From: Catenuloplanes sp. NPDC051500
Lineage (GTDB): Bacteria; Actinomycetota; Actinomycetes; Mycobacteriales; Micromonosporaceae
DNA length: 64,000 nucleotides
Assembly: GCF_044454585.1 (NCBI RefSeq)
Contig: NZ_JBITDX010000004.1
Location: 240,766 to 304,765 of the forward strand
Direction: 5' to 3'
Part shown: positions 15,136 through 58,590 of the stretch, in pieces
How positions within the stretch are numbered: the stretch's first letter is position 1
Layout: every line of letters begins with the position of its first letter
The notes under the pieces: model-generated
Database searches by the model: none
The model's input: the letters and a program-made list of their open reading frames with translations, nothing else
What the model was told of the DNA's origin: nothing
Made by a program: the position numbers and the translations under genes

Positions 15136-15470
15136 GTCAAGATCCTTGTTGCGCTCACGGTTCTTTACCGGCTGCGCAAAGGACCGTGAGCAAAACAAGG
15201 ATCTTGACTCCCGCATAGTGGAAGATCCACTTCCGGCCGGCGGGCCGGACGATCGCGGCGGACATGGACCCCGCGCCCGAAAGGCCGGTAACGCCCACCT
15301 GGATCTGCGCCCTACCTGCCGGACCGCGCAGGAGTGCATCCGGCTGGCAGAGGCCCACGGGCCGACCGCGTCCACTTCAAGATCAAAATAAGCTACGTGG
15401 CATCGGGCCGGTGCCCGCGGGAGCGAACGGGCCGGACCACCGCGGAAGCGGGAAGAGCTGGATCTTCAGC
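15136..15470. mobile_element. MITE-like repeat, diverged full copy
   Basis: Its ends resemble the terminal inverted repeats of the 41456-41815 element. The right end gcccgcgggagcgaacgggccggaccaccgcggaagcgggaagagctggatc closely matches 41757-41815. The left end TCAAGATCCTTGTTGCGCTCACGG resembles TCAAAAGCTTTCTTCCCGCTCACGC. The element is intergenic. Confidence 0.55.
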
Positions 15471-16110: not shown

Positions 16111-16125
16111 GCTGTTCACCCTAAC

Positions 16126-16189
16126 AAGCGGAGGCATCATCTCCGATTGTTGTGATGCGATCGACAAAATGGAGACAGCATCTCCGCTT
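16126..16189. promoter_or_regulatory. putative TetR operator pair in the divergent TetR/MFS intergenic region
   Basis: Two GGAG-N7-CTCC palindromes (ggaggcatcatctcc and ggagacagcatctcc), flanked by the inverted repeat AAGCGGAG...CTCCGCTT. Confidence 0.45.
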
Positions 16190-16232
16190 AGCACCTACGG
16201 TCGCAGACGTTCAGTGACGTATTCGACCTGGG

Positions 16233-37939: not shown

Positions 37940-38179
37940 TCAGCTGTGCGTGGGGACGCGCGGCTGAGGCACCTCCAACCAGCTCGGGTTGGAACCCCGC
38001 CAGGCGTTGGCGAGGATCACGGCCGAGGCCTGGCTGGGGCACTCCTGGACCTTGGACTTGCCGGAAGCGCCGCCGATCTGCGCCTCGACCTCCCAGCGCG
38101 CCCCATCCGTCCGGATGAAGACGTCGCGACGACCCTTTGGGGTGCGGTTCCCGTTCCACCAGTGGCATTCGACTCTCAC
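37940..38179 (-). CDS. small hypothetical protein (79 aa, Trp-rich)
   Basis: Third-position GC about 85%, versus mixed for the overlapping + ORF. GTG start with no clear RBS. Confidence 0.3.
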   Translation of the reverse strand: MRVECHWWNGNRTPKGRRDVFIRTDGARWEVEAQIGGASGKSKVQECPSQASAVILANAWRGSNPSWLEVPQPRVPTHS

Positions 38180-38374
38180 TACCGGACCGTACCCCAGGTC
38201 GGGCCTAACCCGAATATTTTGATCTTGATCGGTTCGGTTACGACTTACCGCACGTCAGAAGTGATCTCCCTGGGGAAACGTGGTGTTCGACACCCATAAT
38301 CCGGTGATCACCGAACGGAAACAAAGCTGCTGGACGCTTGCCTTTCCGATCGCACCTTTCGGGGGTAGGGCACC

Positions 38375-39121
38375 GTGGAAATTCTTCTGATGACCGCCAT
38401 CGCCGGCGAGCGCGCCCGACGCGTCCTTCCCGGGCTCGACCTCCTGCCGCACACGCTCCGGGTCGCCCCGCGAGACGTGTCCGCGCTGATCAGCGGTCCG
38501 AACCCGGACATCGTGCTTGTCGACGGCGCGCACGGACTCGGCACCCGCTCCGGCCTCGCCGAGGCCCGCGACACCTGCCGCCTGCTGCGCGCCACAGGCC
38601 TCTCCAGCCCGCTCCTCGCGGTCGTCGACGAAGCCGGCCTCGCCGCCGTCTCCGCCGAGTGGGCGCTCGACGATGTGGTGCTCGCCACGGCCGGCCCCGC
38701 CGAGATCGAGGCCCGGCTCCGGCTCGTCACCGCCCGCCGCACCGCCCAGGCGGCCGGCGCGAACGGCCTCATCACCGCCGGTGAGCTGGTCATCGACCCC
38801 GCCACCTACGCCGCGAAGCTCAAGGCCGCGCCGCTCGACCTCACCTACAAGGAGTTCGAGCTGCTGAAATTCCTCGCGCAGCACCCCGGGCGTGTCTTCA
38901 CGCGCGACCAGCTGCTCCGCGAGGTCTGGGGCTACGACTACTTCGGCGGCCACCGCACCGTCGACGTCCACGTCCGCCGCCTCCGCGCGAAGCTCGGCTC
39001 CGAGTACGAGTCGATGATCGGCACCGTGCGCCAGGTCGGCTACAAGCTGGTCCTCCCGCCCCGCCCGGAGTCGGCTCAGGCCTTCGCCACGGCTGCGGAA
39101 CTGGAGACCATGTTCGCCTGA
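38375..39121 (+). CDS. glnR: atypical OmpR-family response regulator, GlnR-like
   Basis: The receiver lacks the DD pair and the conserved Lys ([12 protein letters not shown]...; ...[19 protein letters not shown]) but keeps LPHTLRVAP and PDIVLVD. C-terminal winged helix ([50 protein letters not shown]). Confidence 0.6.
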
Positions 39122-40761: not shown

Positions 40762-41408
40762 ACCCCGTTCGCGTGCTCATCGTCGACGACGACCCGCTGG
40801 TCCGCGGCGCGCTCACCATGATGCTCGACGGCGCCGGCGAGATCGTCGTGGTCGGCGAGGCCGCGGACGGCGCCGCCGCGATCACCGCTGTCGACCGGCA
40901 CGCCCCCGACGTGGTCCTGATGGACATCCGCATGCCCGGACTGAGCGGCATCGCGGCCACCAGGCGCCTGCGCGCCCGCCCCCGGCCACCCGAGATCATC
41001 GTGCTCACCACGTTCGACACGGACGACCACATCGTCCGCGCGCTCCGGGCCGGCGCCGGCGGTTTCCTGCTCAAGGACACCCCGCCGGACCGGATCGCCG
41101 CCGCCGTCCGCGCCGCCGCGGCCGGCGAACCAAGCCTCTCCCCGTCCGTCGCCCGCCGCCTGATGCACCAGGTCGCCACCGGCGCCGCCGACTACGAACG
41201 CGCCCGCGCCACCCTCGCCGCCCTCACCCCACGCGAACGCGACGTCGCCCTGGCCATCGCCCACGGCAGCGCCAATGCGGACATCGCCGCCGCCCTCGAC
41301 ATGAGCCTCACCACGGTCAAGGCCCACGTCTCCCACATCCTCACCAAACTCGCCCTCACCAACCGCACCCAGATCGCCCTCCTCGCCCACGACGCCGGCC
41401 TCATCTAG
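40758..41408 (+). CDS. NarL/LuxR-family response regulator
   Basis: VLIVDDDPLVRGAL...VVLMDIRMPGLSG receiver and a LuxR HTH. GTGA overlap with the kinase stop. Confidence 0.85.
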   Translation: MNPVRVLIVDDDPLVRGALTMMLDGAGEIVVVGEAADGAAAITAVDRHAPDVVLMDIRMPGLSGIAATRRLRARPRPPEIIVLTTFDTDDHIVRALRAGAGGFLLKDTPPDRIAAAVRAAAAGEPSLSPSVARRLMHQVATGAADYERARATLAALTPRERDVALAIAHGSANADIAAALDMSLTTVKAHVSHILTKLALTNRTQIALLAHDAGLI

Positions 41409-41455
41409 GCCGTCATCCCGCAGGAGCCGTCATCTCGCAGGATCACAAGCCTTCA

Positions 41456-41815
41456 CGATCAAAAGCTTTCTTCCCGCTCACGCCGTGGTGCGGCCCGCAC
41501 GCTCCCGCGGGCAACGGTCGGCCGCAGGCGGCCTCCCTTCCGGTTCCGCGGTTGGCCACCCCACGAGCCCTCACGCGCCGCGCACGTCCTCCCTGCGGTG
41601 GTGGCGTGGCCCGGCTGACTCGTCGCCAGCAGCCCCGCGGCGGCTCCTCGACAACTGTGTGCGGTGACGGATTGAGCCGCGCCTGTGGGGTTTCGGCCAC
41701 GACGGGACCGGCTCGGAGCGACGTGCGGAGCGCCAGCGGAGCCCGGCGCGACGTTTGCCCGCGGGAGCATGCGGGCCGCACCACCGCGGAAGCGGGAAGA
41801 TCAAGATTTTGATCG
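41456..41815. mobile_element. MITE-like non-autonomous element (about 360 bp) with about 45-bp terminal inverted repeats
   Basis: Left end CGATCAAAAGCTTTCTTCCCGCTCACGCCGTGGTGCGGCCCGCA; the reverse complement of the right end is CGATCAAAATCTTGATCTTCCCGCTTCCGCGGTGGTGCGGCCCGCA. No credible ORF inside. Confidence 0.6.
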
Positions 41816-41871
41816 TCGCCTCGGGGAGGGATGTGCCGCCGACCGGCACGGGGGCTCGTGTGCCGCTGCCG

Positions 41872-43101
41872 TCAGCCGGCCGAGGTGAGACGGGCGGCGC
41901 GTCCGCGTAGGTAATGGCGTTCCGGGAGGCTCGTGGTCAGGGCGGCGGCGAGCAGGTAGTCCTGTTGTGCGCCGGTGGGGTCACCTGCGAGTTCCCGCAG
42001 ATGGGCGCGGGTCGACGCGAGCCGGTGGTGGCCGGTCAGGCGGGCGTCCTGTGCGAGGCCGGCCAGCATCGCCAGACCGGCGTCCGGGCCGTCCGTCATC
42101 GCGACCGCGATCGCTTGGTTGAGCGACGCCATCGGGGATGGTGCGATGCGGCAGAGCACGCGGTAGAGGAGACGGATCTGCGGCCAGTCCGTGGCGGCGA
42201 CGTCGGGGGCGGTCACGTGCAGTGACGCGATCGCGGCCTGCAGCTGGTACGGGCCGAGCGGCGCGTGACTCATCGCGTCCGTCACAAGCGTCGTACCCTC
42301 GCGGATCAGATCGTGATCCCACCGGGACCGGTCCTGCTCGGGCAGCGGGATCAGGCCACCATCCGCGTCCGCGCGGGCCGCCCGGCGCGCGTCCGTGAGC
42401 AGCATCAGCGCGAGCAGTCCGGCCACCTCGCCGTCGTCCGGCAGCGTGCGGTGGAGCGTCCGGGCCAGCCGGATCGCCTCGGACGCGAGGTCGGGGCGCT
42501 GGAGGAGCGGGCCGGAGCTTGCGGTGTAGCCCTCGTTGAAGATCAGGTAGAGCACGTGACGTACCGCGTCCAGCCGGTCGGCGAACGGCAGGTCCGCGAC
42601 CACGCCCGCCGCCCTGATCCGCTGCTTCGCCCGGCTGATCCGCACGCCCATGGTCGCCTCCGGCACCAGGAACGCGCCAGCCACCTCCGCAGTGGTCAGC
42701 CCGCCCACAGCCCGCAGCGTCAACGCGACCTGCGACACCGGCGTCAGCGCGGGATGACAACACAGGAACAGCAGCTCCAGCGTGTCGTCCCGGTCGCCGA
42801 GCCGTTCCTCACCGGGGCCCGGAACGGCCGCGGGCCGCAGTGCCTCCGCCGCGTCCGCCGCCTCCCGGTCCCGGCGGGCCCGTTCGCTGCGGATCAGATC
42901 CACCACCCGCCGCGACGCGACAGTCACCAGCCAGCCCCGTGGACTCGCCGGCATGCCCTCGGCAGGCCACTGCAGCGCTGCCGCGAGCAATGCCTCCTGC
43001 AACGCGTCCTCGCAGGCCGGGAGATCGCGATATCTCCTGACCAGGGCGGCGAGGACCTGGGGCGAGAGGTCGCGCAGCAGGCCCTCGACGCCGTCCGTCA
43101 C
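41872..43101 (-). CDS. ECF-type RNA polymerase sigma factor with a long C-terminal extension (SigJ/ECF56-like architecture)
   Basis: Sigma-2 region (LQEALLAAALQW), sigma-4 (LTTAEVAGAFLVPEATMGVRISRAKQRIR), then about 230 aa including YLIFNEGY. Confidence 0.75.
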   Translation of the reverse strand: MTDGVEGLLRDLSPQVLAALVRRYRDLPACEDALQEALLAAALQWPAEGMPASPRGWLVTVASRRVVDLIRSERARRDREAADAAEALRPAAVPGPGEERLGDRDDTLELLFLCCHPALTPVSQVALTLRAVGGLTTAEVAGAFLVPEATMGVRISRAKQRIRAAGVVADLPFADRLDAVRHVLYLIFNEGYTASSGPLLQRPDLASEAIRLARTLHRTLPDDGEVAGLLALMLLTDARRAARADADGGLIPLPEQDRSRWDHDLIREGTTLVTDAMSHAPLGPYQLQAAIASLHVTAPDVAATDWPQIRLLYRVLCRIAPSPMASLNQAIAVAMTDGPDAGLAMLAGLAQDARLTGHHRLASTRAHLRELAGDPTGAQQDYLLAAALTTSLPERHYLRGRAARLTSAG

Positions 43102-43454: not shown

Positions 43455-43588
43455 GTCGACTCCTCATCGCGGGCCGCGCCGTGCCGGCGCATCAGGTGGT
43501 CGGAGTCGCCCGGCCGACTTTGACATGTTCCCGCCACGAACTCCTCGACACCTCGTCCGACCGGGCCGGCGCTGGTACGCAAGGATGC

Positions 43589-44782
43589 ATGACCGTGGGC
43601 GAACTCCCTGAGCCGCCGCGCCTGCCCAGACCGGTGGGTGCGGTACGCGCGTTCTGGGCGCGCCACCCCCGCCTGGTGGATGCGCTCGTGGCCGGGTTCT
43701 GCTGGCTGTGGGTCTTCGACGACGGCGCGGGCGGGTTGCAGATTCCGCAACCTGTCGACGGGCCGTGGTGGGCCGTCAACACAGTCATGGCGGCGTCCAT
43801 GCTGGTCCGCCGCTCCCATCCGTGGTGGACGGTGCTTGTGGTGACCGCCGGTGGTGTCCTGATGAGCGACCATTTCGCAGGCATCGCGCTCGCCTGTGCG
43901 CTCTACGCCCTCGCCGCCCACCGCTCGACAGTCGCCGCGGTGCTCGGCGCGGTGCTTGCCGTGGGCGCCTCGGTCGCCGTGGCCGCTCTCCGGCCGGACC
44001 CGCAGGCGTGGCGGGACACGGCCGTCGCCGGCACGCTGATCGTTGTGGTGTCGGTGCTGCCCGGCGCGAACGCCCGGATCCGGCGCCGGTACCTTGAGGC
44101 GCTCCTGTACCGCACGGAGCAGCTCGCCCGGGAGAAGGAGCAGGAGGGCCGGCTGGCCGCGGCCCGGGAACGGACGAGGATCGCCCATGACCTGCACGAC
44201 ATCGTGGCGCACAGCCTGACCGTGATGGTACGGCTGGCCGACGGCGCGGCCGCGGTGACCGGAACGGATCCGCGCCGTGCGGAGTCGGCGTCCGAGCGGA
44301 TCGCCGACGTCGGCCGGACCGCGATGGTGGACATGCGCCGGCTGCTCGGGGTGCTCCGCGACGGCCCGCCCGGCGAGGAGGGCCGGCCGATCCAGAATCT
44401 GGACACGCTCGTGGCGACGTTCCGGGCCGCCGGATCGCCTGTCGTGGTCCGCAGGCAGGGCCGGGAGCCGAGATCTCCGAGCCTGCGCAACGCGATCCTC
44501 CGTACCGTTCAGGAGTCCCTGACCAATGCGCTGCGCTACGCCGACCGCGCGGAACTGGTGCTCGTCGATCTGGACTACCGGGCCGACCCGATCCTCATCG
44601 AGGTCACCGACGACGGCCGCGGCACCGGTCCGGCGACGTCGGTGGGCGCGCGGCAGGGCCTGAGCGCGCTGCGCGAGCGGCTCTCGCTGTACGGCGGCAC
44701 GGTCCAGGCCGGACCCCGCCCGGGGTACGGATGGACAGTGCACGTGACCCTGCCCCAGCCTGACGAGGAAGCCGATGGATGA
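43589..44782 (+). CDS. sensor histidine kinase, HisKA_3 type (paralogue of 39682..40761)
   Basis: TM helices, then ERTRIAHDLHDIVAHSLT and a C-terminal HATPase (GRGTGPATSVGARQGLSALRERL). Confidence 0.75.
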   Translation: MTVGELPEPPRLPRPVGAVRAFWARHPRLVDALVAGFCWLWVFDDGAGGLQIPQPVDGPWWAVNTVMAASMLVRRSHPWWTVLVVTAGGVLMSDHFAGIALACALYALAAHRSTVAAVLGAVLAVGASVAVAALRPDPQAWRDTAVAGTLIVVVSVLPGANARIRRRYLEALLYRTEQLAREKEQEGRLAAARERTRIAHDLHDIVAHSLTVMVRLADGAAAVTGTDPRRAESASERIADVGRTAMVDMRRLLGVLRDGPPGEEGRPIQNLDTLVATFRAAGSPVVVRRQGREPRSPSLRNAILRTVQESLTNALRYADRAELVLVDLDYRADPILIEVTDDGRGTGPATSVGARQGLSALRERLSLYGGTVQAGPRPGYGWTVHVTLPQPDEEADG

Positions 44783-45425
44783 GACGACGGTACTGCTCGT
44801 GGACGACCAGGCGCTCGTGCGCGAGGGCATGGCGATGGTCCTCGGCCGGACACCAGGCCTGCGGATCGTGGGGGAGGCCGGCGACGGCCGCGCGGGCGTC
44901 CAGCTCGCCCGCCTGCACCGGCCGGACGTGGTCCTGATGGACGTGCGGATGCCGGTGCTCGACGGCATCGGGGCGACCCGCGAGATCGTGGCGCGGTGCC
45001 CGGAGACCCGGGTGCTCATCCTGACCACCTTCGACCTGGACGAGTACGCCTTCGACGGCCTGCGCGCCGGGGCGAGCGGTTTCCTGCTCAAGGACGCGAC
45101 CTCTGCCGACCTGGTGCGAGCGGTGCGTACGGTGGCGGCCGGCGAGGCGGTGGTCTCCCCCCGGATCACCCGTACGCTTCTGGACCACTACCAGGAGAGC
45201 CCCGCGAACCCGCCGGAGAGCGCTCGCCTGCTGGAGAGGCTGACCGGCCGGGAACGCGAGGTCCTCGTCGCCATCGCCGGCGGCCTGTCGAACGCCGAGA
45301 TCGCCGGCCGGCTCTTCCTCTCCGAGTCGACTGTGAAGACCCACGTGGGGCGGGTCCTCGCCAAGATCCAGGCTCGCGACCGGGTGCACGCCGTCATCTG
45401 GGCGCATCGGCACGGGCTCGCCTGA
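44775..45425 (+). CDS. NarL/LuxR-family response regulator
   Basis: VLLVDDQALVREGM...VVLMDVRMPVLDG, with a LuxR HTH at the C-terminus. Confidence 0.85.
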   Translation: MDETTVLLVDDQALVREGMAMVLGRTPGLRIVGEAGDGRAGVQLARLHRPDVVLMDVRMPVLDGIGATREIVARCPETRVLILTTFDLDEYAFDGLRAGASGFLLKDATSADLVRAVRTVAAGEAVVSPRITRTLLDHYQESPANPPESARLLERLTGREREVLVAIAGGLSNAEIAGRLFLSESTVKTHVGRVLAKIQARDRVHAVIWAHRHGLA

Positions 45426-45447
45426 TCAAGGCGAGCCCGTGCCGGGC

Positions 45448-46896
45448 CTATTCGGCGCAGACGGCGCCTTCCCGGGCCGGCGGGACGCCGTCGAGCAGGT
45501 AGCGGTCCACTTCCGGACGGCAGGCGCCGTAGACGTACGAACCGTGCCCGTTGCCCTCGCGGGTCAGCAGCCGGCCGTTCTCCAGGGTTGCCGCGGCGGA
45601 CTGTCCCCACTCGTAGAGCGCCGCCGGGTCACCGGTGCCGGCGATCAGCACGATCGGCACCGAGCCCTTGGCGGTGACCGGATGCGGGCGGGACACGCCA
45701 CCGTTCGGCCACTGCGGACACGGCGTGCCCGACATGACCTCCGGCCCGAACACCTGTCGTTCCCGGATCAGGGCGGCCCGGTCCGCCATGATCCGCGCCG
45801 CGCTGCGCCGGTCCGGCAGGTCCAGGCATTGGATCGCGTTGAACGCGATGCCGGTGTCGGGGTCCGGTGTGATGACGCTGTGGTCGCCGGCGCGCACGGC
45901 CGTGAACAGGCTGTCCAGCTCCGGGGCACCGGCCGGGTTGGACAGGTGCTCCTCCGTCAGGTTGACGAGCTGCAGCTGCTCGCCCGGATGCCGGTCGGCC
46001 GCCCGGAACAGCTCCGCCACCGCAGTCCGGCCCTGTGCCACGGTCGATCCGTGGAATGGGCAGCCGGCCCGGTCGTCGCAGGTGTCCAGGTAGGCGTCCA
46101 GACCCCGCTCCTCGCCCTTGGCCACGTCGGTGAGGAAGGCCTTGTTGTCCTGGGCCGGGTCGACGACCGCGTCAAGCACCATGCGCCCGACCCGGGTGGG
46201 GAACAGGTCCGCGTACCGCAGGCCGAGGCGGGTGCCGTAGGAGCCGCCGTAGTAGGAGAGCTTGTCGTCGCCGAGGACGGCGCGCAACACGTCGAGGTCC
46301 CGGGCGGCACTTACCGTGTCGACGTGATCGAAGATCGGCCCGGACTCGGCCCGGCACGCCCGCACCCAGCTCCTGACCGCCGCCTCCCGGGCGATCCGCT
46401 CGGCGAGGTCGTCCGGGGAGGCGTCCGAACTCCGGAACGCCGCGTCGGCCTCCGCCGGGCAGCTCAGCGGCGCGGACCCGCCCACCCCCCGAGGGTCGAA
46501 GCTGACCAGGTCGAACCCGTCGATCACCGGCCTGCTGAAGAAGCGCGCCGCGAACTCAAGGAACGGTTTCCCCGGTCCGCCCGGTCCGCCCGGATTGAGC
46601 AGCAGTGACCCCCGGCTGGTGCCGGTGGCCCGGTGCCGATGCACCTTTATCGTGATCGTCTGTCCCGCCGGGCGCGACCAGTCCACCGGGACTGTGACGT
46701 CTGTGCAGTCAAGCACCAGTCCGTGCTCGTCGTCGCAGGACGCCCAGGTGAGCGTCTGCCGGTAGAACCTGTCCGGGGTCTCCGCGGCGTTTGCAGCCGG
46801 CACACCCAGGCCCATCGTCAGGCCACCCACAAGCAGTGCTGCGGCGGTGTGTCGCCAGCCGGGACCGCGCGTCCGTCCATCAGATGTTCTCGTCAT
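45448..46896 (-). CDS. secreted alpha/beta hydrolase, S33 tripeptidyl-aminopeptidase (TAP) family
   Basis: Signal peptide (AAALLVGGLTMGLGVPAANA), then LLNPGGPGGPG and the nucleophile elbow YYGGSYGT. Confidence 0.8.
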   Translation of the reverse strand: MTRTSDGRTRGPGWRHTAAALLVGGLTMGLGVPAANAAETPDRFYRQTLTWASCDDEHGLVLDCTDVTVPVDWSRPAGQTITIKVHRHRATGTSRGSLLLNPGGPGGPGKPFLEFAARFFSRPVIDGFDLVSFDPRGVGGSAPLSCPAEADAAFRSSDASPDDLAERIAREAAVRSWVRACRAESGPIFDHVDTVSAARDLDVLRAVLGDDKLSYYGGSYGTRLGLRYADLFPTRVGRMVLDAVVDPAQDNKAFLTDVAKGEERGLDAYLDTCDDRAGCPFHGSTVAQGRTAVAELFRAADRHPGEQLQLVNLTEEHLSNPAGAPELDSLFTAVRAGDHSVITPDPDTGIAFNAIQCLDLPDRRSAARIMADRAALIRERQVFGPEVMSGTPCPQWPNGGVSRPHPVTAKGSVPIVLIAGTGDPAALYEWGQSAAATLENGRLLTREGNGHGSYVYGACRPEVDRYLLDGVPPAREGAVCAE

Positions 46897-46976
46897 GACG
46901 TCGACGCTAGGGAGGCGGCAGGTCCCGGCCATCCACCCGCGGTGCCCTCCCGTGGTGGTACCGAGGTACCACGCGG

Positions 46977-48275
46977 TCAGGAACTCCCGGACAGGTGGGC
47001 GTGGGCGAGTGTGAAAGCATGTTCGCTTCCCGGCGTACGCCGTAGTTGCTCGCCGAGCGTCTGTGCCGCCGGCGCGCAATCGAGCACGCGCTGCACAGCG
47101 GCGGCGATGTCGTCCGCCGACGCCGCGTTCGGGTCCAGGGCCACGCCGGTCCCGGTGGTCTCGATCGCCGCCGCACCTGCGAACTGGTCTGTGGAAAACG
47201 GCAGCGCCAGCATCGGTACGCCCGCGGTGAGGGCCTCGGTGACGCTGTTGTTACCGGCGTGCGTGACGGCCATCGCCGCCTGCTCAAGCAGCACGGTCTG
47301 CGGAAGGTAGGGGCGCACGAGCCAGGTGTCCGGCATCGGCGGCAGGTCCTGGGCCGATCCGGTCGCCAGCGCGACCCGCAGGCCGGAACGCCGCAGTGCC
47401 GCGGTGACCGTGCTCAGCACATCCGCCCGGGTGGACAGGAAGCTGCCGAAGCTGACGTAGGCGAACGGCTGGTCGCCTGCGTCCAGCCACGCTCGCACGT
47501 CTGCCGGGACGGTCTCGGTGCGGACCGCCGAGCCGAGGAACGCGTGCGGAGCCGGCAGAGCGGTACGGGCCGGGTCGTGCAACGCGGCGGGATAGTTGTA
47601 GAGCACCAGGTCGCCGTGTTCGGTGAACGCGTCCGTCGCGGGTGTGGCGGTGGGGGCGAGGGTGTGCAGCGCGGCGTTCCACTCGGCGGTGAACTCGTCC
47701 CGCACGGTGCCGCACAGCCGGTGCAGCTCGGCGAGTTCGCTGTCGGCCGGACGGAACGCCGCCGGCCAGGCTGTCGGGTAGCCGTAGACCTCGTCGCCGA
47801 CGGGCAGGGCCGACGGGTGGCCGAGCACGACGTCCACGTGCGGGACAGCACCCGCGGTCAGGGCCAGCCGGGCGCTGAAGGCCAGATGGTCGACGATGAT
47901 CTGGTCGGGCTTGACCTGCTCGACCACCGCGAGGACCGCCCGTGCCCGGTCGACCGGTTCCCAGAGCAGGTCGTTGCGGCGGGCCTCAGCCTGGAAACGA
48001 AGCGTCTCGACCATCCCGCGGTACGTCGCGGCGAAGAACCCGCGCAGCGCGTCGTCCTCGCCGGCCGGCTGCTGCTCGGCCCGGATCACGCCCGGGTTGG
48101 AGCCCCGGCCGAGCGGAAGGTCGCAGTGCGCGAAGCCGAACCCCGCGACCAGTGCTGCGGTCGCGGGGCCGGTCGCCACCACGACCCGTTCGCCGGCCTT
48201 CTGCCACGCGGTGGCGAGGGTGGCCAGCGGCAGCAGGTGGGAGGCGTAATCCGGGCTGATCACCAGGAGGGTCAT
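46977..48275 (-). CDS. GT1-family UDP-glycosyltransferase (MGT/macrolide-GT-like)
   Basis: THAGNNSVTEALTAGVPMLALPFSTDQ (PSPG-like C-terminal motif). Confidence 0.8.
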   Translation of the reverse strand: MTLLVISPDYASHLLPLATLATAWQKAGERVVVATGPATAALVAGFGFAHCDLPLGRGSNPGVIRAEQQPAGEDDALRGFFAATYRGMVETLRFQAEARRNDLLWEPVDRARAVLAVVEQVKPDQIIVDHLAFSARLALTAGAVPHVDVVLGHPSALPVGDEVYGYPTAWPAAFRPADSELAELHRLCGTVRDEFTAEWNAALHTLAPTATPATDAFTEHGDLVLYNYPAALHDPARTALPAPHAFLGSAVRTETVPADVRAWLDAGDQPFAYVSFGSFLSTRADVLSTVTAALRRSGLRVALATGSAQDLPPMPDTWLVRPYLPQTVLLEQAAMAVTHAGNNSVTEALTAGVPMLALPFSTDQFAGAAAIETTGTGVALDPNAASADDIAAAVQRVLDCAPAAQTLGEQLRRTPGSEHAFTLAHAHLSGSS

Positions 48276-50377
48276 GACCGGTGCTCCTCGACTGTCACGG
48301 ACGCGTAGATGCCGGCCAGGCTACCGGCCATCGCATCCACGGTCAGGCCGTCGCTGATCCTGGCGCGGGCCCGCTCGACCCGCGACGGCGTGGGCAGGCA
48401 CGCGAGATCGAGGGCGCCCAGGAACGCGTCGGCCAGAGCGGCCGGGTCGCCGGCCCGGGCGAGCATCCCGGTGACGCCATGCTCGATGTAGGTGGCCGGA
48501 CCGCCGGCGTCCGGCCCGACCACGACCAGGCCGGCGGCCAGCGCCTCGAGCAGGGCGAGGCCGAACTCCTCCTTGAGGCTGGCGCACACGTAGACGCCGC
48601 CGGCGGCGATCAGGGACGTACGGCCGGCATGTGCTGCCGCGAGCCAGCGGGCCACCACGTCGTTGGGCCGGTGGCCCGGCATGATCAGCCCGGCCGAGGC
48701 CTCCGGGTACTCGCGCAGCACCTCGGCGACGAGTTCCAGTTGCTCCCGCTCGTCCAGGGACGGATCCGCCAGGTCGCCGCCGACGATCAGCAGGTTGCAC
48801 CGTTCGCGCAAGTCCGGGTCTCGGGCCCACGCCTGCACCAGGGTCGCCATGCCTTTGACCCGGTGCAGCCGCCCGACACTCATCGCCAGTGGCAGGCCGT
48901 GGCGCCGCGGCGGCAGAGCTTCGACGAGCGCCTCCAGTTCGTTCATCGCCGAGGAGTCAAGCGGCTCGGCAGCAGCGGCCCGGCTGACGTCCAGGTCGAT
49001 GCCTTCCGCGACAACGCTGTAGCGGCCGGTCCCGTCGGCGATGTCGATGCCGATGAGGGTCTCCAGGTCGCGGGCCAGGTGCGGGCGGGGGAAGAGGACG
49101 ACATGGCCGGCCTCGGCAGCCAGCCGTTGCACAAGCCGCGCCCGGAACCAGTAGTGCTCCCGTTCATCCACCTGGCCGAAGTTGTCGCGACGCAGACCAC
49201 CCGTGCGTTCCAGGGCGTCGATTGTCGCGTGCGGGTCCGGGGCCAGGGTGAACACGATCGGGATGCCCAGCTCCGCCGCCACCTCGGCCGTGGCCAGGCT
49301 GCCGACCTCCGCCATCCGCAGGTGGACGGCGTCGATGTGATGGGCGCGCAGCAGGCGCCGGACACCACGCCGTACGGCGACCCGGGCCGGCCACGCGTCG
49401 GCCGCGTTGGTCGCCGGGCCCGGCATCGGCACGCCCGCAAGCACGTGGCGCTCGTCAGCGGAGAGCGCGGCCAGCGCATGCTCCGGGGTGCCGCGCGAGA
49501 TGGTGAGCACCCGCTCGACGCCGGGCTGGGCGGCGAGCTTGTCGCCGAGCCGGACGAGCAGGGTGGCGATGCCGCCGTTGTCGCCGGCACCGGCCCGGCT
49601 CAGCTCCCGATCGAGGTCCGCGTGCAGGAACAGTTGGGCGATCCGCAGGCCCGGCGTGTCCCCGGCGGAGCCTCGGCCGGCGACCGGTGCGAGGTCGGCG
49701 GCGGCCAGCCGGGCCACGGCGCCGAGCTCTCCGTCCGCGGTGCGCAGGGACTCGAGCGCCCGTACCGTTTCCGGGTCGCCCGGCCAGTCCCCAAGAGCGG
49801 CGACAGCCCGGGTACGGGCGGCCGGGCTCTCGTCCGGGTCCAGGGCGATCCGGCGCACGGCCTGCACGGCCGACTCGGCGGGCACCAGGCCGAGGGTCTC
49901 GACGAGCCGCGCACGGGTCTGCGGGTCCCGCGTCCCGGCCAGGGCCCGGAGCAGCTCGGTGGCGATGTGGTCCCCCGCCGGGCCGCCCCAGCTCTCCAGA
50001 GTCCGCTGCGCGAGCATGCCGGAGAACCCACCCCCGGCGACAGTGCGGACGAGCCGGTCGATCGCGTCCAGCCGGGGCAGGCGCGACTGCAGCATCCAAG
50101 CCGCATGCTCCCGCAGAAACCGGCGCGGATGCGACAGAAGCCGCGACAGTACGGCGTCGGCCTCATCGTCGATCACGGCGCCGATACCGTGTACGGCGGC
50201 CACCGCCGCCAACTCGTCGTCCCCGTCCACCGCCTCGGCCAGCGACCTCATCACCGATCGTGCGGGACTCCGTGCGGCCTCGAACGCGAGCCCGTGATCG
50301 TCGCGGAGAACGTCGAGCATGGAAGCACTGCGGCGGACCTCGTGCAATACGGAGTTCACGGATGACGGCATACCCAT
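48272..50377 (-). CDS. fusion protein: N-terminal HEAT/PBS-lyase-like repeats + C-terminal GT4 glycosyltransferase
   Basis: N-terminal half has repeated LL.AL...D...R..A...LG motifs. C-terminal has EEFGLALLEALAAGLVVVGPDAGG (GT4 E-x7-E). ATGA overlap with the GT1 gene. Confidence 0.7.
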   Translation of the reverse strand: MGMPSSVNSVLHEVRRSASMLDVLRDDHGLAFEAARSPARSVMRSLAEAVDGDDELAAVAAVHGIGAVIDDEADAVLSRLLSHPRRFLREHAAWMLQSRLPRLDAIDRLVRTVAGGGFSGMLAQRTLESWGGPAGDHIATELLRALAGTRDPQTRARLVETLGLVPAESAVQAVRRIALDPDESPAARTRAVAALGDWPGDPETVRALESLRTADGELGAVARLAAADLAPVAGRGSAGDTPGLRIAQLFLHADLDRELSRAGAGDNGGIATLLVRLGDKLAAQPGVERVLTISRGTPEHALAALSADERHVLAGVPMPGPATNAADAWPARVAVRRGVRRLLRAHHIDAVHLRMAEVGSLATAEVAAELGIPIVFTLAPDPHATIDALERTGGLRRDNFGQVDEREHYWFRARLVQRLAAEAGHVVLFPRPHLARDLETLIGIDIADGTGRYSVVAEGIDLDVSRAAAAEPLDSSAMNELEALVEALPPRRHGLPLAMSVGRLHRVKGMATLVQAWARDPDLRERCNLLIVGGDLADPSLDEREQLELVAEVLREYPEASAGLIMPGHRPNDVVARWLAAAHAGRTSLIAAGGVYVCASLKEEFGLALLEALAAGLVVVGPDAGGPATYIEHGVTGMLARAGDPAALADAFLGALDLACLPTPSRVERARARISDGLTVDAMAGSLAGIYASVTVEEHRS

Positions 50378-50519
50378 GCTTCGGAGCCGCGACCGCTCCC
50401 GGATGCAAAAGATCGGCACAAAAAGAGTGCGCTACCGCACACCGTTTTTAGACCCGCCAGAGCCGCGCCTGGGCGACCACCGCGACGCGGGGTCTGGGGG
50501 TCGCTTCCAGGAAACTACC

Positions 50520-50601
50520 GTGGGCCGGACGTTGCACCATGCGAACCACCCGATCATCGTCACCGGCGACCCCACTGCCGGGACGTTTGGCCAGTTCAAG
50601 G
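50520..50601. repeat. direct repeat copy A (about 82 bp)
   Basis: gtgggccggacgttgcaccatgcgaaccacccgatcatcgtcaccggcgaccccactgccgggacgtttggccagttcaagg; about 85% identical to 51946..52027. Confidence 0.8.
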
Positions 50602-50662
50602 GGTACTCGACCAGCCCGATAGCCTGATTCAGACCCACCCTCAGCCGCCTCGGAGTGCTGCG

Positions 50663-51229
50663 CTACCAGGCCGGGGGACCAAGATGGCGTCGTACTTCAG
50701 CCGCGAATCTAGGTACGCCGGTGCGTTGCAGAAGGACGAGGACCTCCGGCACGGTGTTCGGCGCACGTCGGTAGGACGCGGCTTGGTGACGGAGCACGTC
50801 CATGGTCAAGCCGGGGTAGAGATCGAGTTGGTCGAGGAGGAAATCGTCGGGGTGGATGGCTGCGATGTCGTAGGGCTTGAGGGCCGGCTCGGGGAAGTCG
50901 CTGAGGTTGAAGGTGACGATGACTTCGGCGTTGGCGCGTACGGCGGCAGCCAGAACGTGTCGGTCCTTCGGATGGTTCGTCATACCGTCGACAAGTGACT
51001 CATAGCCAGTGACCAGGGCGTCGGGGAATGACCGGCTCATCTGGCCAAGCCGCCGATCAACCCGATCCGGTGGTAGCCCGCGCTTGGTGAGGTTGCGACG
51101 TAGTTCGGTGAAGACGTCGGCCGACCAGAGCGGCCGGTATGCGGAGGCTTCGGCGAGGCGAAGCAGGGTGTCGCACAGGTATGCCGGGTAGAGCACGCAG
51201 GTGTCAAGGAACGCGGGAAACGCCACCAT
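50663..51229 (-). CDS. PIN-domain toxin (VapC-like, about 190 aa)
   Basis: FLDTCVLYP at the N-terminus (first acidic residue), DRHVLAAA, TFNLSDF. Confidence 0.75.
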   Translation of the reverse strand: MVAFPAFLDTCVLYPAYLCDTLLRLAEASAYRPLWSADVFTELRRNLTKRGLPPDRVDRRLGQMSRSFPDALVTGYESLVDGMTNHPKDRHVLAAAVRANAEVIVTFNLSDFPEPALKPYDIAAIHPDDFLLDQLDLYPGLTMDVLRHQAASYRRAPNTVPEVLVLLQRTGVPRFAAEVRRHLGPPAW

Positions 51230-51238
51230 GACCGGCTG

Positions 51239-51709
51239 TCACCTCGACGGCGGTGAGTCGAGGGTGATCTCGTACAGGTCGTCGTCCTCGGCGTCGGCTG
51301 CCATCTGGTCCAGGGCGCGGCGGCGTTCGGTGCGGGTGCGTTCGGAGTAGTCGAGGATGTCCCGCAGCAGGACTCGTCGGTGCCGGCCGCGCAGGCTGTG
51401 CGGGATCTCGCCGTCGGTCAGCAGGCGGACCAGCGTAGGTCGTGAGATGTTGAGCAGGTCAGCGGCCTCTTGGGTGGTCAGCATCGTGTTGTGCGGGGCG
51501 ATCGAGATGGCCATGCCCTGGGACAGGGCACCGACGACGTCGCGCAGCAGTTCGTAGAGTTCGGCCGGGATGTCGAGCTGCGAACCGTCCGGGCCCACCA
51601 GCTTCGCTCGGGCGGGGGCCTCGGCGGCGGCCATACCCCGCGCGAAGCGCACCAGGTCGGCGGGGTTTTCAGGTGGCAGAACGGTCCGTTCACGCAGGGT
51701 GCTCGACAT
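51239..51709 (-). CDS. HTH_17 (excisionase/MerR-like) DNA-binding antitoxin partner
   Basis: LTTQEAADLLNISRPTLVRLLTDGEIP...GRHRRVLLRDILDY. A 9-bp gap separates it from the PIN gene. Confidence 0.7.
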   Translation of the reverse strand: MSSTLRERTVLPPENPADLVRFARGMAAAEAPARAKLVGPDGSQLDIPAELYELLRDVVGALSQGMAISIAPHNTMLTTQEAADLLNISRPTLVRLLTDGEIPHSLRGRHRRVLLRDILDYSERTRTERRRALDQMAADAEDDDLYEITLDSPPSR

Positions 51710-51945
51710 GAAGCCAGCATACCGCTATTCGAAAAATCCGAAAGCCGCTACGGCTTGGTGAAGCCCAGCGTGCGATAGCCGGGCATTCGGCGCTGCAGCG
51801 AGACAGCCAGGATCGGCGTCGCCGGGTCGTGCCGGCCACGATGGCAGATCGCCACGATCCCCGACGAACGCAGATCCACCTTCCGGAGCTCCACCAGCAG
51901 CCGACAACAGCGAATCGCCGGGCCGCGGTTCGCATGCAAGATCAA

Positions 51946-52027
51946 AGTGGGCCGGACGTTGCACCATGCGAACCACGCCACCATCGTCCCGGGCCGCCCA
52001 CTATCGGGACGTTTGACCAGCTCAAGC
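51946..52027. repeat. direct repeat copy B
   Basis: gtgggccggacgttgcaccatgcgaaccacgccaccatcgtcccgggccgcccactatcgggacgtttgaccagctcaagcg. Confidence 0.8.
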
Positions 52028-52125
52028 GTTAGACGCTAGCGCTCGGGGCCGTTGACCCCAACAACAGCGGGCTCACCCTCCATGCCGATAGTGGTACCGT
52101 ATTCAGTACCACTTCGGGAGGCATC

Positions 52126-52383
52126 ATGACGTCTGCGATCAGTGCCAGCGAGGCGCGCAAGTCCCTATTTCCACTCATCGAGCGTGTCAACGAGGACCAC
52201 ACCCCGATCGAGATCGTTTCCAAGCGGGGTAACGCCGTCCTGGTGAGCAAGGAGGACTGGGACTCGATCATGGAGACCAACTACCTGCTCCGATCGCCCG
52301 CCAACGCCAAGCGCCTCGTCGAGAGCGTCGAGCAGTGGCGAGCCGGCCGAGCCACCGAACGCGAGTTCGGCCCCGAGGAGTGA
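52126..52383 (+). CDS. yefM: YefM/Phd-family antitoxin
   Basis: SASEARKSLFPLIERVNEDHTPIEIVSKRGNAVLVSKEDWDSIMETNYLLRSP. Confidence 0.85.
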   Translation: MTSAISASEARKSLFPLIERVNEDHTPIEIVSKRGNAVLVSKEDWDSIMETNYLLRSPANAKRLVESVEQWRAGRATEREFGPEE

Positions 52384-52640
52384 AACTCAGCTGGACCGAC
52401 CACGCCTGGGACGACTACCTGTACTGGCAGACCCAGGACCGCAAAACCCTCAAACGCATCAACGCGCTGATCGCCGACATCAAACGCGACCCCGACGGCC
52501 AGGGCATCGGCAAGCCGGAGATCCTCCGAAACAACCTCGCCGGACTCCGGTCCCGTCGCATCGATGACGAGCACCGCATGGTGTACGCCGTCGAGCCCAG
52601 CGAGATCTCCATCATCTCCTGCCGATACCACTACGAGTAG
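52380..52640 (+). CDS. yoeB: YoeB/Txe-family toxin (mRNA interferase)
   Basis: LSWTDHAWDDYLYWQ...RINALIADIKRDP...GIGKPE...HRMVYAV...CRYHY. GTGA overlap with yefM. Confidence 0.85.
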   Translation: MKLSWTDHAWDDYLYWQTQDRKTLKRINALIADIKRDPDGQGIGKPEILRNNLAGLRSRRIDDEHRMVYAVEPSEISIISCRYHYE

Positions 52641-52661
52641 GTCAGGCCTTATCGTTGCTGC

Positions 52662-53799
52662 TCAGCGGCGTTTGGCGAACTCTGCCAAGCGCTCGCTGAG
52701 CGGGCTCACCCGTGGGCGCGGTGGCCGATCGAAGTAGCCCGGCTTGATCTCGCGCATCAGCGTCTCACCGTCCCGGTTCCAGTCGAACCGTGGCCTCTTC
52801 AACAGCCGCCGGAACACGACACTCGCCTTCTCGGGATCTCGAGCAGCCAGCCGGCGCAGGACCATCGGCTCCACACTGTCGTCCTCGATGTAGGACAGCG
52901 TCTGCTCGCGCCACCGGCGGCGCCGCAACAGGTCGGGGTTCGCGAACGCTTCCTCCAGGAGGCCGAACTCCGCGTAGAAGCCGAGTCCGTCCGTCTCGTC
53001 GTAGATCAGCGCAACCGTTTCCGCATCGGTCACCTCCGGCGGCAACGACATCGACACCGCCGGAGGGACGTCCTTCGGGTCCGGCCCGAGAACCGTGTTC
53101 ACGGCAGTAGGTGTAGTAGCCGTCGAGCCGCTCCTGTGCCTGTTCCCCCGGGACCACCAGAAGGTCGGTGCCGAAGAACTCGACGAACCGTGCCCGGTCA
53201 GCACGCTGATGCTTCCACGCCATTGCCATCTTGTCCGGGTTCCGGAACACCGCTTCCGGCGTACGCAAAGACATGTCCAGCGCGAGTCGATAGGCGATGT
53301 CCCGTTCGCTCCCGCGGAGAATCTGTACCGGCCCGCTCAGCATCCACTCGTCACCGACAGCGACCAGCCGGGCGATGATGAACGAGTGGCGCGGCATCTG
53401 CTTGAACACGGCCGGGCCCATGTTCGATCTAACCCGATAGGTCAAGTCGTCGACGAGGCTCTCCACCAGGAGCGCGGGCCCGTCCTTGCGCTGCACCTCG
53501 AACGGGCCCTGCACCACGTCGCGCCAGCCGAGCACCATCTCCCGTTCGGCCTCCGGCAGGTCCGGCCGGGCCTCGACGAACTGCTCCACCACCGTCCGGC
53601 CGTTCGCCAACCGGTGCTCCAGCACGAAACAGTCCCAGAGCAGCATCCACCGCTGCTCATCGGCGTCTTCGCGGCCGTTGCCGTACTGGGCCAGAAAACT
53701 CGACGCAGCCCGGTTGTAGCGGGGCTGCTGAGAAAACGCCACCAGCTCGCCCTTGAGGTCACCCGCCCGTCGGAGCAGCGCGGCATCAGACATCGACAT
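52662..53799 (-). pseudogene. hypothetical protein gene (about 380 aa) disrupted by a frameshift near 53090-53110
   Basis: Frame A (53799 to about 53080) gives a protein-like sequence up to ...ERLDGYYTY, then Arg/Gly-rich nonsense. Frame B becomes protein-like from ...NTVLGPDPKDVPP down to the stop at 52662. Confidence 0.45.
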
Positions 53800-53856
53800 A
53801 CCACCAACCTATGAGCTGCCGGAGTCAGACCGGCACGGGGTGCCTCGTTCGGGTGG

Positions 53857-55086
53857 TCAGTCGGTCAGATATCGAGCGAGGCGTTCGGCGTTGAGTCCCC
53901 GCATCGCGTCCTCCACGGCTTCCGAGTCGGAGAGATCGATACCACGGGCCGTCAGCTCCGCGGCGATCTGCTTGGCCGGACCCCACGCCGCCGTGTCGTC
54001 GAACGCCTCCTCGAACGCGGGAAGGAACGTGTCGACAGCCTCGATCACCGGACTGATCCATACCGGGTCGACCGCACGGTGTTCCAGGGCGTACCGGATC
54101 CAGCGTCGCAACACGTCCGGCAGCGCGGCACGCTGCTCAGCGTCCAGCGCCGCCTTGCGCGGCAACCAGTCGGCCAGGAACAAGCCGACCTGTCCTGGGC
54201 TCCAGCACAGCGGACCGCTGGTCATGTAGCCGGCACCGTAATCCAGGAACAGGTCGGCCAGCGACCTGGCGACCGTGTCGTCGGCCGGCGCGAATCCGTC
54301 CAGCAGTCGTTGCCGTTCCTCATCGTCCATCGGCTGCCAGTCACGGAAGTCCGGCAGGTACGGAAGGCATCGTGACCAGGCCATCGCCCGCAAGTCGAGG
54401 AAGTCCTCGTCATCGTGGCGGGGCCAGGTCATGTCCGTGGTCCGCAGCGCGTCCGCCAGCTCCGCCAGCGCCACCTCGACCGGGCACTCGACGGCCGGCA
54501 TCGGCACCTCGTCGGGCTCACGCAGCCGATCCCAGGTCTCCGCAGCCCCGGGCTGCAGTAACGCCAGCTTGTCGACCAGCACACCGCCGGCGAGGGAGAT
54601 CTGCGCCATCAACGTGTGCGGAGTCTGCCCGGCGAACTCGACGAACAGCACATGCTCGCTGTCCCAGACATCCACCGCTCGCCACGCCCGAACCGGCTCA
54701 AAGACAGGCGCCTCGAACCACGATGGCACAGGCTGACTCTCCGACAAGATCTCCAGGGTGCCATCCAGCATCGACCACTCACCAGGAGCGCCGACACGGC
54801 GCAGCGCCGCCACCGCGGCCAGCCCGTGCGGCAACGGCCGGGTCGACGCCCGGCCCACCACCTCCAGGTGGAACATCTTCTCCGGGTCACGCTCGCCGAG
54901 CCCCGCGGCCGACCATGCCGCGCCGAGCCACTCACTGGCCCACCGCTCCACCTCGAGCACACTGTCCTCGGACACGATCGTCACCGCGTCACGCATCAAC
55001 CGGTCCGACAGCCGCAACTCCCGCACCGGGCGCTGCGGACGCCTCGGCTTACCTCGTCCCGCGGGACGACCACGACTCTTAGGCAT
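53857..55086 (-). CDS. hypothetical acidic protein (410 aa)
   Basis: Protein-like composition with no recognisable motif. Start at Met-23 (MPKSRGRP). Confidence 0.5.
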   Translation of the reverse strand: MPKSRGRPAGRGKPRRPQRPVRELRLSDRLMRDAVTIVSEDSVLEVERWASEWLGAAWSAAGLGERDPEKMFHLEVVGRASTRPLPHGLAAVAALRRVGAPGEWSMLDGTLEILSESQPVPSWFEAPVFEPVRAWRAVDVWDSEHVLFVEFAGQTPHTLMAQISLAGGVLVDKLALLQPGAAETWDRLREPDEVPMPAVECPVEVALAELADALRTTDMTWPRHDDEDFLDLRAMAWSRCLPYLPDFRDWQPMDDEERQRLLDGFAPADDTVARSLADLFLDYGAGYMTSGPLCWSPGQVGLFLADWLPRKAALDAEQRAALPDVLRRWIRYALEHRAVDPVWISPVIEAVDTFLPAFEEAFDDTAAWGPAKQIAAELTARGIDLSDSEAVEDAMRGLNAERLARYLTD

Positions 55087-55186
55087 GTACCCATTTACCG
55101 CATTCAGCCCGGCACAACGCCCGAGCGACCCGCGGTTCGTGCAATGCCACATTCAACCAGCACGAACACGCAGGCCATGCGCAGAG

Positions 55187-55261
55187 TGGGGCCGGCGGGA
55201 CTCGAACCCGCACTGGAACGGACCTAAACCGTTTGCCTCCTGCCAATTGGGCTACGGCCCC
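55187..55261 (-). tRNA. tRNA-like gene with predicted anticodon UAG (Leu-decoding) but class-I architecture (5-nt variable loop, 3-bp D-stem); possibly an atypical or pseudo-tRNA
   Basis: Reverse complement GGGGCCGTAGCCCAATTGGCAGGAGGCAAACGGTTTAGGTCCGTTCCAGTGCGGGTTCGAGTCCCGCCGGCCCCa. It has a perfect 7-bp acceptor stem, a T-arm GCGGG-TTCGAGT-CCCGC and an anticodon arm AACGG-TTTAGGT-CCGTT. CCA is not encoded. Confidence 0.6.
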
Positions 55262-58478: not shown

Positions 58479-58480
58479 AG

Positions 58481-58590
58481 CCAGTTCATCTTCCCGCTCA
58501 CGCGGTGGTCCGGCCCGCACGCTCCCGCGGGCACCGGTCGTCGCCCAGGGGCTCCTCCCTTCCGGTTCCGCGGTGGTCCAGGGGGACGGT
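58481..58590. mobile_element. partial (left-end) copy of the MITE-like repeat
   Basis: TTCATCTTCCCGCTCACGCGGTGGTCCGGCCCGCACGCTCCCGCGGGCACCGGTCG...CTCCCTTCCGGTTCCGCGGTGG is about 90% identical to 41465-41560. Confidence 0.6.

Follow-up and report, generated by a model that had tools for sequence, protein, structure and literature searches.

A long inverted repeat composed of two shorter units

The window analyzed here is a stretch of 64,000 nucleotides from contig NZ_JBITDX010000004.1 of the actinomycete Catenuloplanes sp. NPDC051500. Between a LuxR-type regulator gene and the convergent gene for an extracytoplasmic function (ECF) sigma factor, it carries a long inverted repeat at 41456-41815, hereafter E41; related sequences lie at two further sites, beside a TetR gene (W15) and a CbiO-like ABC ATPase gene (W58) (Table 1). 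E41 consists of two units, one A-type and one B1-type, arranged tail to tail between convergent genes, and the entity that is repeated is a module of approximately 100-150 bp with a leader, a core and a tail rather than a 360-bp block. We argue below that these modules probably constitute a Catenuloplanes-specific family of non-autonomous interspersed repeats resembling REPINs (hairpin-forming doublets of repetitive extragenic palindromic [REP] sequences) and bacterial interspersed mosaic elements (BIMEs).

The repeat is real and stands well above chance level. An inverted-repeat search of the window recovered E41 arms of 52 nt (41469-41520 and 41749-41800; 88% complementary) and an outer pair of 14 nt (41455-41468 and 41803-41816; 93% complementary), and, as single-stranded DNA, the segment 41441-41830 forms a rod with a folding energy of -135.5 kcal/mol, compared to -101.7 +/- 4.2 kcal/mol for shuffled sequences (z = -8.1). 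A degenerate 43-nt core, CTTCCCGCTnnCGCnGTGGTnCGGCCCGnnnGCTCCCGCGGGC, matches the window 4 times, at 41470 and 58490 on the plus strand and at 41757 and 15413 on the minus strand, versus 0.00 matches expected from 100 shuffles.

An earlier note, made from the letters of the window, had described three intergenic copies of an approximately 360-bp element bounded by inverted termini. Both termini that it quoted are present, at 41456-41499 and 41770-41815, and its copy at 58481-58590 is indeed related to E41, the left arm of which is matched there at 88% identity over 92 nt. The shared core that it proposed, CCCGCGGG, occurs in all 4 cores, all copies sit between gene ends, and the lack of a credible open reading frame (ORF) is borne out by the two longest ORFs inside E41, neither of which has a Pfam family. 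By contrast, the region 15136-15470, which had been taken for a full but diverged copy, shares with E41 one arm only in BLAST comparison (45-49 nt, 15408-15456), so that the count becomes 4 copies of a shorter unit at 3 sites. The reading as a repeat family thus stands insofar as the sequences are lineage-specific, noncoding, intergenic and dispersed over unrelated loci, whereas the approximately 360-bp block with terminal inverted repeats (TIRs) of approximately 45 bp does not stand as the element.

Each arm of E41 was recovered by profile search with nhmmer (41445-41527 for the A unit and 41819-41743 for the B1 unit). The A unit, with its second box 27 nt past the core, is 88% identical to W58 and shares the leader motif TCACAAGC...GATCAA with the unit at L009:5317, from a locus of Catenuloplanes japonicus. 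The B1 unit has its second box 45 nt past the core, as in two C. japonicus B1 units, and is 78% identical over 157 nt to the unit at L009:11459. Within the window, the spacer that separates the units has a single match, 21 nt long and part of an A-type tail, and no second copy of the E41 interior was found in the window.

Table 1. Coordinates of the repeat units, doublets and neighboring features (positions refer to the window unless a locus is named)
Feature	Coordinates	Strand	Description
A-type unit, left arm of E41	41441-41562	+	Leader 41441-41469, core 41470-41512, tail with second box CCGGTTCCGCGGTTG at 41540-41554
Spacer of E41	41563-41686		124 nt between the units; no conserved family part
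B1-type unit, right arm of E41	41687-41832	-	Leader 41832-41800, core 41799-41757, tail to 41687, second box 41697-41711
Single A-type unit (W58)	58479-58585	+	Very short leader; occupies the interval from the stop of the CbiO-like ABC ATPase gene (58478) to that of a convergent membrane-protein gene (58591)
Single unit (W15)	15393-15484	-	Core 15455-15413; no A or B tail; nhmmer and core matches
Doublet E41	41456-41815		A + B1, spacer ~125 nt
Doublet at the ECF sigma site, C. japonicus	L009:11222 / 11459		A + B1, beside the ECF sigma gene; counterpart of E41
Doublet, C. japonicus	L010:3883 / 4430		B2 + B1
Unit at the CbiO site, C. japonicus	L009:5317-5393		Downstream of CbiO; 80% identical to W58
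Unit at the TetR site, C. japonicus	L010:6635-6714		Directly after the TetR stop; 79% identical to W15
Decayed unit at the TetR site	L011:9779-9833		Unit 73% identical; metagenome contig of a closer relative, TetR 93% identical
Tandem duplication, 17 nt	41409-41442	+	GCCGTCATC(C/T)CGCAGGA twice, separating the stop of the LuxR-type regulator gene (41408) from the A-unit leader
Hairpin, 73 bp	15136-15208		31-nt arms, 90% complementary, 11-nt loop; 'left end' of the earlier note; not a demonstrable family member

Anatomy and subtypes of the repeat unit

We aligned 18 unit copies. The leader is AT-rich and variable (approximately 12-45 nt), contains GATCAA/AAGATC-like words, and often begins with CCCCCGAA and ends with GAT-N. 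It is followed by a GC-rich core of 43 nt, which contains the box CCGCTTCCGCSGTGG and in which the blocks TTCCCGCT, GTGGT and GCTCCCGCGGGC are invariant across the 18 copies, around short variable positions. The tail of subtypes A, B1 and B2 closes with a second, directly repeated box, CCGGTTCCGCSGTGG, usually followed by an AAACCC-like motif, and its length sets the subtype (C < A < B1 < B2): the second box lies on the same strand as the core and 27 nt after it in subtype A (5 copies), 45 nt in B1 (3 copies) and 57 nt in B2 (1 copy), whereas subtype C has a variant box, CCGTTCGCGGTGG, approximately 6 nt after the core. When up to 2 mismatches are allowed, CCGGTTCCGCSGTGG has 35 matches in 181 kb, 14 of them in cores and 9 at the 27-, 45- or 57-nt offsets. 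From the alignment, the subtypes look like nested internal-deletion variants that retain both ends; conserved ends combined with a dispensable interior are the pattern expected of a non-autonomous element with cis-acting ends. Relics of group IIC introns or 5'-truncated retroelements were also considered and ruled out by the conserved unit ends, the internal-deletion variants and the lack of Rfam intron domains. One 7-nt block of the core differs by genome: both E41 arms read CCGCA(C/T)G, and four units from two C. japonicus contigs read CAGCGTT.

Single units prevail, with 12 singles versus 3 doublets in the inspected sequence. The partner of B1 in the doublets varies, being A in E41 and its C. 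japonicus counterpart and B2 in the other C. japonicus doublet. The tail-end spacers of the two C. japonicus doublets measure approximately 80 and 255-330 nt, and doublet spacers are not significantly alike, the best comparison (window versus L009) scoring 21, which is inside the range of shuffles (95th percentile 20, maximum 27). Taken as a whole, E41 has the arms of 52 and 14 nt, but each single arm has direct rather than inverted boxes. The hairpin GCCCGC-N8-GCGGGC is found in 14 of the 18 cores, and the conserved region, at least 43 nt long, is non-palindromic.

Distribution of the family

Approximately 190 kb of Catenuloplanes sequence was inspected, most of it chosen for holding or flanking a unit. 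Among 185,579 species, represented by one genome each, the strict core has 7 matches, all in C. japonicus NRRL B-16061 and one apiece per 8-kb stretch; nhmmer adds one further copy in these 56 kb. The strict pattern badly undercounts the family: two C. japonicus loci, L009 and L010, have 6 units between them, and it matches none. The earlier note's expectation of further copies outside the window is thus borne out by a related genome, and there are signs of past mobility. Metagenomes yielded 0 matches in two scans, one with the strict and one with a gapped-permissive pattern, and plasmid and phage collections gave no blastn match. A scan of IMG/VR produced a single match (UViG 2772190661, locus L013), near a prophage-type serine recombinase gene; the repeats in question are probably host DNA at a prophage border rather than evidence for a viral vector. 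They comprise two cores in direct tandem at 2971-3103, 85 nt apart, the first with a leader and no tail and the second with a B2 tail and no leader, approximately 580 nt from the large serine recombinase gene. As far as these scans show, the family does not extend beyond a narrow Catenuloplanes lineage. The ECF sigma factor of the window has its best match beyond NPDC051500 in C. japonicus, at 83% identity.

Units are also where three draft contigs end (L008, L009 and L012). An overlap of exactly 72 nt, again within a unit, allows the C. japonicus contigs JNXY01000053 and JNXY01000031 to be joined. Such behavior is typical of repeats at which short-read assemblies break. Searches of the literature outside subscription journals for miniature inverted-repeat transposable elements (MITEs), REPs and intergenic repeats of Micromonosporaceae and actinomycetes yielded no description of the family.

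Position relative to genes

All copies are intergenic, with gene positions in L001-L007 and L013 taken from ORFs and a heuristic based on the GC content of third codon positions rather than from gene calls. Convergent gaps hold E41, W15, W58, L002b, L003, L005, L007 and both C. japonicus doublets, co-directional gaps hold L002a, L004, L006 and L013, and no copy was seen in divergent promoter regions among the inspected loci. The leader is the gene-proximal end in all 5 asymmetric singles (p ~0.03, our own count), and leaders face outward in all 3 doublets. At several copies, the upstream gene ends within the leader, which provides its final codons and stop (W15 and its counterpart L010:6635, L007, L010:3883, L003 and L013); in W15, the leader overlaps the end of the TetR gene at 15466-16194 on the minus strand. 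At L005, it is the tail end that supplies the stop codon of the convergent gene. The L004 and L006 copies are antisense to both neighbors, and there is accordingly no strict sense-strand rule. Overall, the units look as though they had inserted into gene ends or immediately beside them.

Retention and turnover of sites between species

All three sites of the window are also occupied in C. japonicus (Table 1), indicating vertical persistence. Copies at matching sites are 73-80% identical between species, as opposed to 84-97% for copies within a genome, where A-type copies are 84-88% identical and the two B1 copies of C. japonicus show 97.3% identity over 110 nt. Coding DNA next to the units has an identity of 85-94% between species. 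The B2...B1 doublet of L010 lies between a gene for a 216-aa protein and a major facilitator superfamily (MFS) gene. At the equivalent place, L011 has a gap of 40 nt and the window an unrelated extra gene. The absence of this doublet from a relative, together with the 97% identity of two B1 copies, points to recent gain or gene conversion. To judge from the sequences, the homogeneity within genomes and the genome-specific variants indicate ongoing turnover or gene conversion rather than strong purifying selection at each site. The extra gene of the window (17748-18503), situated between the MFS and 216-aa genes, encodes an NPCBM/NEW2 domain, has AT-rich stretches and is absent from both relatives at this site.

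The sigma locus differs in arrangement between the two species. With the two C. japonicus contigs joined, the order is HisK-LuxR> <ART Macro> B1...A <sigma <YCII, compared to HisK-LuxR> A...B1 <sigma <YCII in the window, which is without the 2.2-kb pair of ADP-ribosyltransferase (ART) and Macro-domain genes and in which the entire doublet, together with its leaders, has the opposite orientation relative to sigma. Since leaders and units moved together, recombination within the inverted arms was ruled out as the cause of the doublet's inversion. A larger inversion followed by a deletion can explain it, as hinted by the similarity, read by eye, between the 3' flank of the Macro gene and that of the sigma gene in the window. 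The ART-Macro pair itself occupies L012 6645-8891 and the end of L009, between the LuxR-type regulator and the doublet.

Tests for RNA, coding and mobile-element features

Searched against Rfam at the gathering threshold, the whole window yielded one tRNA only, and E41 searched at E values up to 10 gave chance-level matches only (E of at least 0.36); no tRNA or tmRNA relics were found at the repeats. Folding of single units on both strands was unremarkable (z from -2.3 to +0.6 relative to shuffles). Across the 18 copies, two candidate hairpins showed 0 compensatory pairs, and 81% of cells were paired, the same as in shuffles. The 6-bp GCCCGC/GCGGGC stem is destroyed without compensation in 4 of the 18 copies, those with the CAGCGTT variant, and the inner pairs of the small CCGC/GCGG stem are mismatched in 6 and 12 of the 18 copies. 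The structured RNA that the earlier note had offered as an alternative finds no support in these results. Consensus scans for promoter-like sites were empty, and a terminator scan found 0 sites in 41300-42000 and 15000-15600, although it is blind to the terminators without U-tracts described in actinobacteria. The internal ORFs of E41 are not preserved in the matching C. japonicus doublet.

Target-site duplications, which the earlier note had proposed as a check at the copy ends, were looked for and not found around 15 units. The 8-mers flanking the same unit matched at 6.53/8 positions versus 6.39/8 between units, and 10-mers at 7.6/10 versus 7.3/10, with fuzzy unit boundaries that leave room for very short duplications. 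In loci with gene-call annotation, no copy has a transposase for a neighbor; L001-L007 and L013 were judged from ORF lists only.

A family of interspersed modules resembling REPINs and BIMEs

In their behavior, the units come closest to REP/REPIN and BIME elements rather than to a MITE mobilized by a DDE transposase. REPINs are inverted doublets with non-conserved spacers, accompanied by decaying singlets and persisting vertically (PMC3337134). The Catenuloplanes units are likewise extragenic and noncoding, and occur as singlets and as hairpin-capable inverted doublets, of which three were found; the spacers vary in length and sequence, the single unit is without TIRs, there is no target-site duplication, sites are shared between related species, and singlets decay. 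With the mosaic elements of Escherichia coli, BIMEs, in which a few conserved motifs alternate in orientation at the 3' ends of transcription units and between convergent genes, and which fall into subclasses defined by binding of IHF, gyrase or Pol I, the family shares its modular, mosaic build, alternating orientation and location at gene 3' ends and in convergent gaps; however, there is no sequence relation, and the Catenuloplanes modules are longer.

Several features set the family apart from REPs and REPINs, and two of these weigh against the interpretation that we favor: the units, at approximately 100-150 bp, are four to five times longer than REPs (approximately 20-25 bp), and hybrid doublets (A + B1 and B2 + B1) occur, although such doublets have been reported not to occur for REPINs (PMC3337134). 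Furthermore, the small palindrome of the core is not conserved, the units have two direct boxes and an AT-rich leader, the spacers (approximately 80-330 nt) are much longer than those of REPINs, and the host is an actinomycete, whereas the REP/REPIN-RAYT systems with their REP-associated tyrosine transposases (Y1/HUH) come from Pseudomonas and enterobacteria. The REP-like family that the earlier note had mentioned is the closest of its three readings, without the conserved palindrome. Similarity to MITEs such as Correia/NEMIS of Neisseria, ERIC/IRU, RUP and Nezha extends to the small, noncoding and intergenic character, to lineage-restricted amplification and to the hairpin potential of E41, but not to target-site duplications, to the doublet as repeated entity, to a conserved spacer or to TIRs in single units. 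Given the lack of a conserved palindrome, the hybrid doublets and failure on three MITE criteria, we place the family in neither REP nor MITE.

We consider it probable that the units form a REPIN/BIME-like family of non-autonomous interspersed repeat modules specific to Catenuloplanes. The units would be spread in trans by an enzyme recognizing the two boxes; where two units lie after two convergent genes, a long inverted repeat such as E41 results. They would persist mostly as neutral or selfish DNA homogenized by gene conversion, and their visible effects, namely cruciform-capable palindromes, hot spots of recombination and rearrangement, and breaks in short-read assemblies, may be side effects. 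Besides unit length and hybrid doublets, further points count against this interpretation. No mobilizing enzyme was found among the inspected loci, so that transposition itself is putative, and the copy number per genome is an extrapolation from 4 units in 64 kb and three contig ends. The presence of the doublet in L010 and its absence from L011 are not polarized and could reflect a deletion in the other lineage. The greater similarity within genomes could come from turnover rather than from gene conversion, and the bias of the leader toward gene boundaries could reflect a selected 3'-end function rather than an insertion preference.

Alternative explanations

Such a function is the substance of a different reading, in which the units are selected cis-elements at gene 3' ends, acting as non-canonical terminators, mRNA-stabilizing structures or insulators between convergent genes. 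Most copies have their leader directly against the stop codon of an upstream gene in the same orientation, the doublets lie between convergent genes, sites are kept in two species, and enterobacterial REP elements have 3'-end effects of this kind. Nevertheless, the terminator consensus scan was empty, the sole recurrent hairpin is 6 bp long and is the one lost in 4 copies, single-unit folding energies are ordinary, and, of the 4 copies in co-directional gaps, 2 (L004 and L006) run antisense to their neighbors; moreover, matching-site copies diverge faster than the flanking coding DNA, and the L011 copy is visibly decaying beside its well-conserved TetR gene. We therefore regard a selected 3'-end element as rather unlikely. 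A further reading takes the boxes for operators of a nucleoid-associated protein or a global regulator, in which case the family would represent the many sites of a single regulon or of a system that organizes the chromosome. Although each unit has two boxes (CCGCSGTGG) at fixed spacing, each with the palindrome CCGCGG, and core blocks are invariant across the 18 copies, the sites occupy gene 3' ends rather than promoters, with none seen in a divergent intergenic region, and the similarity spans more than 100 bp, leader and tail included, far beyond the needs of a binding site. The short box is also not enriched outside units in the window (17 matches versus 13.2 expected), making an array of binding sites very unlikely. 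Least probable of all is a multi-copy structured noncoding RNA gene or riboregulator family, which the conserved 43-nt core and the CUCCUCCCU motif of A-type tails, complementary to Shine-Dalgarno sequences, would suit, but for which there is no Rfam family even at E values up to 10, no promoter-like site, no compensatory pair, pairing only as in shuffles, and no fold of a single unit better than shuffles on either strand.

The strict MITE reading of the earlier note, refined to an approximately 390-bp block measured from leader to leader and moved by a DDE-type enzyme, would make the A and B1 units TIRs with two transposase-binding boxes each, in the manner of Tn7-, Mu- or IS21-like ends, and the singles solo ends remaining after internal deletion. 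The long inverted termini and strong hairpin potential of E41 fit this reading, as do the resemblance of two boxes per end to multi-site transposon ends and the outward bias of the leaders, which is the expected leftover of deletions of the inner part. The A + B1 combination also recurs at the matching C. japonicus locus, where the whole doublet with its leaders is inverted relative to sigma; that inversion, however, accompanies the 2.2-kb ART-Macro indel and is explained equally well by a larger rearrangement. Singles outnumber doublets 4-fold in the census above, so that copy boundaries fail to coincide with the inverted termini, an outcome that the earlier note had itself named as refuting its proposal; the A-spacer-B1 composite has no second copy at an unrelated site, B1 pairs with B2 as well, and spacers are unconserved. 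It is this prevalence of single arms, with changing partners and differing spacers, on which the strict 360-bp reading fails. Own flanks of a unit are no more alike than flanks of different units, and no transposase was found near copies in the loci annotated from gene calls. A classical MITE is thus unlikely.

If the units are instead REPIN/BIME-like modules, a more specific proposal can be put forward, tentatively and with little confidence: they may be the cis-sites of a vertically inherited, trans-serviced repeat system in Actinomycetota comparable to REPIN-RAYT, whose substrate would be the approximately 100-150-bp module bounded by two direct 15-nt boxes, with the AT-rich end inserted or retained against gene boundaries and copies homogeneous within each genome. 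The inverted doublets between convergent genes would then be its 'REPIN' form. To our knowledge, no such system has been described for Actinomycetota, and we are aware of little work on REP- or MITE-like repeats in high-GC actinomycetes. In practical terms, the family accounts for breaks between the contigs of Catenuloplanes draft assemblies, for ORFs called spuriously across doublets (such as the 231-aa call at L010:3934-4629) and for C-termini that are altered where the repeat leader supplies the last codons. The findings bear on no open question of long standing and establish no new mechanism. The sites retained between species, the homogeneity within genomes and the two-box architecture make the family a tractable case for studying how repeats spread and persist, and the inverted doublet and ART-Macro indel of the sigma locus make it suitable for asking whether repeats drive local rearrangements.

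Other features of the window and related loci

The tandem duplication in front of the A-unit leader of E41 has a parallel at L002:4286, the leader of which is likewise preceded by short tandem duplications. The hairpin at 15136-15208 has no nhmmer match with either family profile and is unique across all inspected sequence; its arms begin with the leader-like GTCAAGATCC and contain CGCTCACG, a similarity to the family that is not significant, and the hairpin may be what is left of a collapsed doublet. AT-rich words of the GATCAA type at 25963, 38203, 51929 and 60381 were rejected as family members by profile search. The region 38100-38400, upstream of a GlnR-type regulator gene, contains an AT-rich leader-like stretch (GATCAAGATCAAAATATTCGGG, minus strand), for which profile search gave no family membership and Rfam no match at the gathering threshold.

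At the TetR site, the A-type unit downstream of the C. japonicus gene is directly followed by a tandem repeat of approximately 65 nt in 2.5 copies (L010 6740-6900). The 1.7-kb gap between TetR and Pyr_redox in L011 (9797-11482) contains an insert of approximately 1 kb between the arms of a 64-nt inverted repeat (CCGATATTTCGGCATTTAGCG...), as well as a hairpin with a 22-bp stem and two tandem-repeat arrays. A CGATATTTCG-like motif is also present inside the spacer of the L010 doublet and is not enriched in the window.

Finally, a segment of approximately 12 kb between the YCII gene and tRNA-Leu (55186-55261), at 43455-55185, is absent from C. japonicus, where these two genes are approximately 160 nt apart. 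It encodes a HisKA_3 kinase with a response regulator, a hydrolase, glycosyltransferases, PIN_3 + HTH_17 and a YoeB/PhdYeFM pair, and is probably a genomic island at a tRNA gene. The 431-aa ORF next to tRNA-Leu (53857-55152) has no Pfam family. Within the same segment, near small ORFs, lies an 82-nt direct repeat (50520-50600 and 51947-52026; 86.6% identical), which is unrelated to the units.

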